A stretch of DNA of 5,772 nucleotides from Escherichia coli. Lineage in GTDB: Bacteria; Pseudomonadota; Gammaproteobacteria; Enterobacterales; Enterobacteriaceae. This document shows, one piece after another, positions 1,795 to 2,943 of this stretch (its first letter is position 1; the number at the start of each line of letters is the position of its first letter). The notes under the pieces are model-generated. The model saw nothing but the letters and a program-made list of their open reading frames with translations. It did not search any database and was not told the DNA's origin. Made by a program: the position numbers and the translations under genes. Where the stretch lies: NCBI RefSeq assembly GCF_050320075.1, contig NZ_CP190025.1; one strand, given 5' to 3'.

Positions 1795-2943
1795 TCATAA
1801 TATGATGGCTAGGAAGCATATTCCAATACCTATGAGCAGGTTCAACGTCATCATTATTTTTCTAAAAATACTGTTACAATTTGTTTTTAAAAAGAATGCT
1901 GATGGGATAATGAATACTGTTATTGCTATAATTGGGGTTGATAATGCAGCAATAACTTTTATAATTTCGAAATTGGCTTCGCCTGCTATAAATGTGATAA
2001 CAGATACGACAAAAACGATTAATGTTTTGTTTTTAAATCCAAGGGATACTATTGTATCAACAACGCCTGTTAGTGTACCTGTATATGCACCGCTGGTAAT
2101 TAAAATCATGGTTAATATGGAAATGTAAGCAACGAAACTATTTTTTGTTACGTTGGCGCTATATGATAATGCATCGCTGTTAATCTCGCGCATGTTTTTT
2201 ATGTCTGAAGGTGAGAATATATTGCTTAATGAGAACACGATGAATGAGATAAATATTAAAATTAATAGTATCCCAAACATGAAAAAACGTAAATCACCGG
2301 CTGTATCTTTTTTGTTTTGAGCAAAGCGTTGTATACATGGTGAAAAATTAAAACTAAATAAAACAACTGGAAATAGAGTAAGTAAATTACTTGTACTAAT
2401 ATTTTGTATTTCTGTAGAATGTGGATGTGCTGGATGTGAATAGAAATATATAGATAAGAACAGTACAATAAGCAAAGATGGAAATGCTATTCCTGATGCG
2501 AGATGCTCTATCTTTGAATTAAAAAAGATAAAAGAAGAACCAAGGGTTGCAGAAATAATCAGTGACACAAATATTCGCTCTGAACCATTTAGACTTAGGC
2601 TAAAGCAAATAATATTTATCATTGTTGTTATGTTTATAATTGCTATTAACAGCATTGATAATAGGAATGCAATACTGATAGCATTTGCGGCTTTTTTTCC
2701 GATAAATAATATGGCAGAACTAACGTATTCTTTTTTGTCTGTAATTAAAATGAATCTATAAAATGTAAATTGCCCTAATAAAGATACCAAAGATGATAAA
2801 ATCAGTATTGTTATTGTTCCGTGAGTTCCTATGACTTTGGGGCCTACAGTCTGGGGTAGGAAAAAAATCCCTGCCCCAAATGATGTTGCAAAGAATGTTA
2901 CTGGCCATTGGATGCTATTTATCTTCATTTTTGAACCTTTCAT
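1795..2943 (-). CDS. HAAAP-family (hydroxy/aromatic amino acid permease; SdaC/TdcC/TnaB/Mtr/TyrP-like) membrane transporter
   Basis: Highly hydrophobic multi-TM ORF. N-terminal motif SFGAGIFFLP and central motif FSFNFSP match HAAAP signatures recalled from SdaC (GTAIGAGVLFLP ... FSFNHSP). Start chosen at the ATG 2943..2941, which overlaps the upstream stop as ATGA. In-frame alternatives are 2979 (ORF-track start), 2952 and 2928; the last is preceded by AAAGG. Very AT-rich. Confidence 0.85.
   Translation of the reverse strand: MKGSKMKINSIQWPVTFFATSFGAGIFFLPQTVGPKVIGTHGTITILILSSLVSLLGQFTFYRFILITDKKEYVSSAILFIGKKAANAISIAFLLSMLLIAIINITTMINIICFSLSLNGSERIFVSLIISATLGSSFIFFNSKIEHLASGIAFPSLLIVLFLSIYFYSHPAHPHSTEIQNISTSNLLTLFPVVLFSFNFSPCIQRFAQNKKDTAGDLRFFMFGILLILIFISFIVFSLSNIFSPSDIKNMREINSDALSYSANVTKNSFVAYISILTMILITSGAYTGTLTGVVDTIVSLGFKNKTLIVFVVSVITFIAGEANFEIIKVIAALSTPIIAITVFIIPSAFFLKTNCNSIFRKIMMTLNLLIGIGICFLAIIL

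Follow-up and report, generated by a model that had tools for sequence, protein, structure and literature searches.

A divergent HAAAP-type permease beside a synthetase-fold orphan enzyme and a serine-type tRNA gene on a ColE1-type plasmid of Escherichia coli

Why does a small mobilisable plasmid of Escherichia coli carry a gene for an amino-acid permease? The question is raised by contig NZ_CP190025.1 (NCBI RefSeq assembly GCF_050320075.1), of which a stretch of 5,772 nucleotides, the window, was analysed at its full length. An original prediction, made from the letters of this DNA, had recognised a permease of the HAAAP family, had taken the retention of the gene as a sign of selection and had suggested three roles for it, namely nutrient scavenging, uptake of a signalling or toxic amino-acid analogue, or substrate supply for the enzyme encoded upstream. 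Here we describe this permease as a distant HAAAP member and note that it is not a lone cargo, being the last gene of an island that also holds the gene of an orphan enzyme, ORF-A, and a tRNA gene. We propose, with about an even chance of being right, that the permease is a dedicated carrier serving ORF-A and moving a serine-like hydroxy-amino acid or a derivative of it, most readily by uptake, in connection with the loading or modification of a tRNA.

Identity and predicted fold of the permease

1795 to 2928, minus strand: permease gene, 377 amino acids from the start common to homologues; stop codon at 1795–1797; annotated as a coding sequence in RefSeq.
2929 to 2979, minus strand: upstream in-frame extension of the permease reading frame, with alternative ATG codons at 2979, 2952 and 2943.

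The reading frame is uninterrupted over 1795–2979 of the minus strand (394 amino acids). The start originally chosen, 2943, is an in-frame ATG, and RefSeq and all homologues begin at 2928 (MKIN..., 377 amino acids), with an AAAGG Shine-Dalgarno-like element 9 nucleotides ahead of that ATG.

Significant homology over the full length places the protein in the HAAAP family (TC 2.A.42), since residues 6–367 align with positions 6–395 of the 397 of the NCBIfam model TIGR00814 (serine/threonine transporter; E 1.3e-23). With 83.8 bits, where the curated cut-off is 525.8, the permease falls outside the curated serine/threonine transporter subfamily, of which it is only a distant relative. Pfam gave nothing significant for the permease, PF03222 and PF01490 both failing to detect the protein of the window, and its only matches to the permease and ORF-A were marginal (DUF6366, E 1.7; MptE-like, E 0.2); PF03222 is carried by 22 of the 44 permease relatives that were aligned. 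When the six HAAAP paralogues of E. coli K-12 were compared, SdaC (60.9 bits, or 100.6 with the clade profile) and then TdcC (59.3 bits) came out as the nearest, and CyuP, TnaB, Mtr and TyrP showed no match.

The signature motifs had been described as clear. Both are present, SFGAGIFFLP at residues 16–25 and FSFNFSP at residues 191–197 of the 377-residue protein, and both fall on the most conserved columns of the alignment with distant relatives (Gly18, Gly20 and Pro25 invariant; Pro187, Phe191 and Phe193 conserved in at least 90%), but the description was overstated, as Pfam does not detect the protein, the TIGR00814 score lies far below its cut-off and RefSeq mostly names the protein hypothetical.

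The AlphaFold model of the permease (pLDDT 88) has 11 transmembrane (TM) helices (residues 3–16/21–28, 35–61, 78–110, 116–135, 137–164, 179–192/196–205, 213–237, 264–295, 301–318, 322–348 and 354–376) in a LeuT/APC-type fold with discontinuous TM1 and TM6, the former unwound at GAG and the latter at FSFNFSP. HAAAP serine, tyrosine and tryptophan permeases are its Foldseek neighbours (TM-score 0.8–0.86), so that structure prediction, which could have placed the protein elsewhere, places it inside the family, and the permease is predicted to be an inner-membrane secondary transporter with the 11 helices of the LeuT/APC fold. Taken with the TIGR00814 alignment and with the RNAI, Rop and mobilisation genes of the replicon, these neighbours uphold the view of a HAAAP permease of APC-type fold as cargo on a ColE1-type mobilisable plasmid.

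Compared with SdaC and TdcC, the serine and threonine/serine:H+ symporters to which full-length homology is detectable, the permease has the same predicted 11-helix LeuT-type fold and the same unwound segments in TM1 (GxG) and TM6 (FxFNxSP), and it too stands beside an enzyme in an operon, as in sdaC-sdaB, tdcB-tdcC, cyuP-cyuA and tnaA-tnaB, in each of which the enzyme uses an amino acid. Nevertheless, it is about 50–65 residues shorter (377 against 429–443 amino acids), only about 20–25% identical, below the Pfam and NCBIfam curated cut-offs, plasmid-borne and of 30% GC, and its partner is a synthetase-fold orphan with a tRNA gene nearby, not a deaminase or lyase. Searched exhaustively, a set of 1.84 billion representatives yielded about five close, full-length 50%-identity clusters, beyond which the matches drop to proteins of 400–440 amino acids with 25–29% identity. 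The permease is therefore not an ordinary orthologue of SdaC, TdcC, TnaB, Mtr or TyrP; it is a distant, shortened HAAAP member on the SdaC/TdcC (serine/threonine) branch, in a divergent clade that is new, very small and plasmid-associated.

Integrity and selection

Intact copies of the permease frame occur in 21 of 5426 complete E. coli genomes, in every case on a plasmid, and in 14 PLSDB plasmid records, Klebsiella among them; the protein database also names a copy from Salmonella. Every RefSeq plasmid copy listed has an intact frame, with neither truncation nor frameshift, and is annotated as a coding sequence, not as a pseudogene, mostly under a hypothetical name. Two comparisons gave ratios of nonsynonymous to synonymous substitution rates (dN/dS): 0.142 with a plasmid variant showing 94% DNA identity to the island, and 0.135 with a relative of 78% protein identity carried by a 43-kb conjugative plasmid. 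Because the frame is intact in these copies and dN/dS is 0.14, the permease is a real gene under purifying selection; these same data rule out a pseudogene or a chance reading frame, and the idea that retention of the gene implies selection is thereby sustained.

Pairing of the permease with ORF-A

2940 to 3830, minus strand: ORF-A gene, 296 amino acids; catalytic fold of Rossmann type, as in class I aminoacyl-tRNA synthetases.

In the sequence itself, the ATG at 2943–2941 overlaps the TGA stop codon of ORF-A (2942–2940) as ATGA, and the start at 2928 is spaced 11 nucleotides from that stop, an overlap and a spacing which suggest that translation of the permease may be coupled to that of ORF-A. 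The order enzyme–HAAAP-like permease recurs in other loci (L002, L003, L009, L010, L017, L020 and L154), and all members of the permease clade with a readable neighbourhood lie directly downstream of ORF-A. It is because of the start/stop overlap, this constant gene order and the absence of the clade outside the module that we read the permease as serving the enzyme; among the three roles first suggested, substrate supply for the upstream enzyme is the one that best fits the overlap and the conserved gene pairing. Characterised HAAAP members are all H+ symport importers, in agreement with the E. coli K-12 annotations, and since the nearest relatives import serine/threonine, uptake of a serine-like substrate is favoured.

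In such a pathway, the permease would be the downstream gene of a two-gene operon led by ORF-A, and would bring in an amino-acid substrate, serine or a close analogue, by proton-coupled uptake for the enzyme. ORF-A would then activate the imported amino acid and load it onto a dedicated tRNA-like RNA or, alternatively, modify the amino acid after the seryl-tRNA synthetase (SerRS) of the host has loaded that RNA. The functional coupling, the serine-like substrate, the direction of transport and the action of ORF-A on tRNA are all deduced, and the charging or conversion of the tRNA-like RNA by ORF-A is suggested by fold and synteny.

We also considered that the permease might be a free-standing importer scavenging serine or threonine, useful alone and with incidental neighbours, as SdaC and TdcC are its nearest characterised relatives and as, in one plasmid lineage (L152/L153), it remains intact despite a frameshifted enzyme gene. 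This is quite unlikely in our judgement, since each clade member with readable context follows ORF-A directly, its start overlaps or abuts the enzyme stop, a generally useful importer would be expected to be more widespread than about five full-length 50%-identity clusters in 1.8 billion, and SdaC, TdcC and other serine carriers are already present in E. coli.

The orphan enzyme ORF-A

ORF-A has a Rossmann-type catalytic domain of class I architecture, about 190 of its 296 residues aligning with synthetase catalytic domains; it has no anticodon-binding domain and no membership by sequence in a synthetase family. Its link to the synthetases comes from structure, since the ORF-A profile, when compared by hhalign with E. 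coli ArgRS and CysRS, matches neither (probability <1%). Conserved motifs comprise ISGGHTVVNLxDRF, LNDFYMEK, SEKNMADRFKRH and KPxCxAGNAAT; 30 positions are invariant (including Gly82, His84, Glu182, Lys183 and Met185), and of five conserved cysteines Cys228, Cys262 and Cys294 are invariant and Cys28 and Cys30 nearly so. No canonical HIGH or KMSKS string occurs in ORF-A; the invariant SGGH (81–84) after the first strand and SEKNM (181–185) after a later strand stand where, by topology, these motifs would be expected.

No sequence match to ORF-A was obtained in Pfam, NCBIfam, PADLOC or the PDB (the last searched with single sequences and a profile), and a PHROGs search gave matches only with E >0.01. 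The family is small and closed, with about 60 clusters in 5.8 billion proteins, all unnamed, and a profile search for remote relatives returned this same family with no bridge to known ones. Stand-alone enzymes resembling class I aminoacyl-tRNA synthetases have been described (MshC, BshC, GluQRS/YadB and the cyclodipeptide synthases), but ORF-A has no sequence similarity to any of them and differs from them by its lack of HIGH and KMSKS strings and by its five conserved cysteines; its association with its own tRNA-like gene, a transporter and a partner of the metallo-beta-lactamase (MBL) fold is likewise not described for them in the literature searched.

Two further features concern the expression and integrity of this gene.

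3280 to 3286, minus strand: run of seven A (A7) inside the codons of the invariant SEKNM of ORF-A.
3831 to 4006: intergenic region of 176 nucleotides between the divergent ORF-A and tRNA genes, with an AAGGAAG Shine-Dalgarno element 7 nucleotides before the ORF-A ATG.

In the third E. coli plasmid lineage (L152/L153, around 975–990) the run in the SEKNM codons is A8, which frameshifts ORF-A and leaves the permease and the tRNA intact; the frameshift was seen in two independent assemblies, and the difference between A7 and A8 could be slippage, phase variation or decay. In the intergenic region, only weak sigma-70-like matches, no more than expected by chance, were found, and promoters are presumed.

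The serine-type tRNA gene with a lysine anticodon

4007 to 4095, plus strand: tRNA gene (ARAGORN; Rfam tRNA, 46.2 bits), 176 nucleotides from the ORF-A start and divergent from it.

The body of this tRNA is that of a tRNA-Ser, with an acceptor stem GGAGAGG/CCUCUCC, G73, an encoded CCA, a 6-bp variable-arm hairpin and a canonical T arm. The anticodon is not a serine one: the 7-nucleotide loop CU-CUU-GA reads Lys(CUU), and RefSeq labels the gene plain tRNA-Lys. All three E. coli ColE1 lineages have a Lys anticodon in a canonical loop (CUU in the window and in L024, UUU in L152). E. coli itself is not known to have a tRNA-Lys(CUU), and, if charged by the host SerRS, this tRNA would read AAG as serine. 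SerRS uses the long variable arm together with G73 as identity elements (PMC7609411).

A long variable arm and G73 combined with a non-serine anticodon recall allo-tRNAs, tRNASec and mistranslating pairs, and the location on a mobile element also recalls allo-tRNAs, which have been reported near toxin-antitoxin and transposon genes and are defined by an 8/4 or 9/3 acceptor/T-stem configuration (PMC5389517). The stems of the island tRNA are 7/5, against 8/5 in bacterial tRNASec, and an allo-tRNA identity is ruled out by the 7-bp acceptor and 5-bp T stems found in every member. Unlike those RNAs, most relatives of the island tRNA have the anticodon arm replaced by a non-decoding hairpin (up to 12–13 bp), and its gene is linked to a synthetase-fold orphan enzyme.

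Two other origins were examined and set aside. A tRNA gene belonging to the ColE1 backbone is ruled out, as backbone similarity resumes only at about 4145. An att remnant of integration is judged unlikely, with no integrase nearby and with the gene occurring on either side and either strand of ORF-A. Nor does the acceptor stem vary between phyla, compensatory changes are seen in the variable arm as well as in the long anticodon hairpins, and the window and L024 copies differ at only 3 of 89 positions without disruption of any base pair, at a synonymous-site divergence of 0.19.

Scanning metagenomes for the 3' half of the tRNA lacked specificity and returned mostly ordinary tRNA-Ser genes (86 of about 127 pattern matches were genuine ones) and no ORF-A. 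The pattern scan also showed about 20 further serine-type tRNA-like genes in metagenome contigs (L026, L032, L043, L045, L051, L064, L086, L087, L094, L099, L129 and others) with non-serine or malformed anticodon loops, namely Arg, Gln and Asp anticodons, 'anticodons' of 2 or 4 nucleotides and extended stems, some of the genes being in tandem pairs. None adjoins ORF-A on its contig, many of these contigs being short. They suggest that a wider class of serine-bodied tRNA variants exists.

The module in other genomes

With the covariance model, tRNA-like matches were found beside ORF-A in nine distinct loci other than the window. A Ser-type tRNA-like gene accompanies the enzyme in 11 of about 20 distinct loci, mostly 18–193 nucleotides from ORF-A (window, L024, L152, L004, L005, L009, L010, L014, L017 and L020), and in L013 it adjoins the MBL gene instead. 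The acceptor stem is invariant in all members, compensatory changes affect seven of 20 pairs in the D stem, T stem and variable arm of the family alignment, and the anticodon arm varies widely among loci. In chromosomal Enterobacterales (L009 5706–5807, L010 5706–5808, L017 and L020 both 3707–3809) this arm is a 12-bp hairpin; the stems of L009 and L010 are perfectly paired and unrelated in sequence. As the anticodon arm has been turned into a long hairpin, most tRNA-like members cannot decode, and the long hairpin of the chromosomal RNAs is clearly under selection though non-decoding.

The third recurrent component is the MBL-fold protein, of about 236–281 amino acids, a relative of PDB entries 2p4z and 3h3e, both uncharacterised. 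It occurs with ORF-A in L003–L006, L009–L014, L016–L021, L023 and L154; neither the E. coli ColE1 plasmids nor the conjugative plasmid L002 have it, and among the other lineages examined only L022, where the enzyme is alone, lacks it.

The module is rare (about 60 ORF-A clusters in 5.8 billion, eight loci in 100,044 species genomes, 0.4% of complete E. coli genomes), and it rides on small plasmids and at sites beside transposase or resolvase genes in Enterobacterales, Fusobacteria, Alphaproteobacteria and Lentisphaerae. Our literature search found no paper on these proteins, the tRNA or the module; the combination of enzyme, tRNA-like gene and transporter is undescribed, with the permease as a new small clade of a known family.

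Particular loci add some detail to this distribution. In Cetobacterium (Fusobacteria), a Rep3 mobilisable plasmid of about 6.9 kb (L011 1–6465; L012 1–5132) has as its only cargo an EamA transporter, the MBL-fold protein and an ORF-A homologue, a counterpart, from an unrelated phylum, of what is seen on the E. coli ColE1 plasmids; a tRNA-like gene was not detected on this plasmid. Two inverted tRNA-like copies are present in L004 (7837–7924, plus strand; 14633–14720, minus strand), one heading the enzyme, EamA and MBL genes and the other an operon of a 43-residue reading frame, a radical SAM/SPASM protein, an MFS transporter and an Asp/Glu racemase, and the region is flanked by Y1 (IS200/IS605-type) transposase genes. 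On the Edwardsiella anguillarum chromosome (L020, 3878–6058), ORF-A and the permease are both split by frameshifts and the tRNA-like and MBL genes look intact; a genuine tRNA-Ser(UGA) lies at 7705–7792, about 3.9 kb away.

Possible roles: uptake, export and others

The slot beside ORF-A is not always filled by the same family of carrier, an EamA transporter being found there in L004 and L011/L012 and an MFS transporter in L013, and ORF-A lacks an adjacent transporter in the alphaproteobacterial loci L006, L016, L018 and L023 and also in L005 and L014. This raises the possibility that the permease is an exporter, perhaps for self-protection, of a small amino-acid-derived product of ORF-A (an antimetabolite or a signal), in which case the island would be the small-molecule counterpart of the colicin or microcin cargo typical of ColE1 plasmids. 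Three unrelated transporter families (HAAAP-like, EamA and MFS) in one slot form a pattern common for exporters of biosynthetic clusters, a tRNA-linked pathway could draw on an ordinary amino acid of the cell, for which no importer is needed, and the Cetobacterium plasmid, with EamA, MBL and enzyme only, suggests that small competitive plasmids carry this set repeatedly. Nevertheless, the island encodes neither a precursor peptide nor any immunity or lysis function, no transporter adjoins the enzyme in many lineages, and no HAAAP member is known to export. Export is conceivable but doubtful.

Microcin C-type plasmid operons, which combine an adenylating enzyme with an efflux pump, offer a functional analogy for export, and the island is likewise a small plasmid cargo made of an enzyme with a Rossmann-type nucleotide-binding fold, similar to that of ATP-using enzymes, and a dedicated membrane carrier. 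Unlike them, it lacks a precursor peptide, an MccB-like enzyme and any acetyltransferase or peptidase for immunity, and its carrier is HAAAP-like, not MFS.

Several observations weigh against a carrier that supplies ORF-A with a serine-like substrate. The identity of the permease clade to characterised HAAAP proteins is only about 20–25%. EamA and MFS, both exporter-rich families, fill the equivalent slot of other lineages, which favours export of a product, and since the enzyme stands without an adjacent transporter in several lineages (the six loci named above), the transporter would be accessory to the enzyme chemistry. Serine is already imported and made by E. coli, so that an extra importer is not obviously needed. 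The intact permease next to the frameshifted enzyme gene of L152/L153 hints at a value of the permease on its own and, as the MBL-fold partner is missing here and in L002, the module of the window may work differently. On balance, we rank uptake for ORF-A slightly ahead of export.

A role in defence or plasmid addiction, with the permease as a membrane-collapsing effector triggered by the enzyme and the tRNA-like RNA, appears highly improbable. In its favour, the island is rare, mobile and of low GC, and defence islands commonly contain an enzyme paired with a multi-pass membrane protein; anticodon nucleases are known to attack tRNA-Lys, and a Lys anticodon is retained in all three E. coli plasmid lineages. 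Against this, neither the permease nor ORF-A has a PADLOC match, the permease has kept all 11 helices of the predicted LeuT fold, together with the conserved motifs at which TM1 and TM6 of working transporters are unwound, and ordinary EamA or MFS carriers replace it in other lineages.

Returning to a permease that serves ORF-A by uptake, a more far-reaching form of this proposal, which we consider rather unlikely as a whole, is that the island constitutes a self-contained mobile tRNA-dependent pathway. The minimal ORF-A would recognise the invariant acceptor end of its own serine-type RNA and either charge it with the amino acid imported by the permease or convert Ser-tRNA made by the host; the RNA would be a non-decoding scaffold in most lineages, and on the E. 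coli plasmids, where it would have gained a functional lysine anticodon loop, it could place serine, or whichever amino acid is transported, at AAG/AAA codons.

Taken alone, the permease is of modest interest, and it is the association of enzyme, tRNA-like gene and transporter that makes the locus unusual. If ORF-A does work on the tRNA-like RNA, this would be a new tRNA-dependent pathway, Lys-to-Ser or Lys-to-X decoding might arise naturally in E. coli from a high-copy plasmid (a recoding or mistranslation device), and the island would offer a compact candidate set of orthogonal enzyme, tRNA and transporter for genetic-code engineering. The oddity is invisible in current annotation, because RefSeq labels the RNA 'tRNA-Lys' and the proteins 'hypothetical'.

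Plasmid vehicle and boundaries of the island

48 to 1508: mobA with nested mbeB and mbeD, plasmid backbone.
1723 to 4145 (about): cargo island of about 2.4 kb and about 30% GC, between the mobilisation (MOB) region and the ColE1 origin, with three genes (permease, ORF-A and tRNA).
4205 to 4310: RNAI of the ColE1-type origin (Rfam, 66.6 bits).

The window of 5772 bp is a complete ColE1-type mobilisable plasmid, with an RNAI/RNAII origin, Rop and a MOB region; it shares 100% identity with E. coli pSM107_2 (NZ_CP130671.1), in whose record Rop, MbeB, MbeD and MobC are annotated and which is typed by MOB-suite as mobilisable with a MOBP relaxase. On the left, the sequence resembles other ColE1 plasmids as far as about 1722; on the right, the resemblance returns at about 4145. 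This delimits the cargo island to about 2.4 kb, and the GC profile changes from about 55% in the backbone to about 30% in the island. This 2.4-kb island, with the pair of permease and ORF-A genes and the divergent serine-type tRNA gene, is horizontally acquired. In the backbone just left of the island boundary (1600–1680, plus strand), we observed a long GC-rich inverted repeat (GCGCGATCGCGGCAG ... CTGCCGTGATCGCGC), which may be a recombination or transfer-related site of the backbone.

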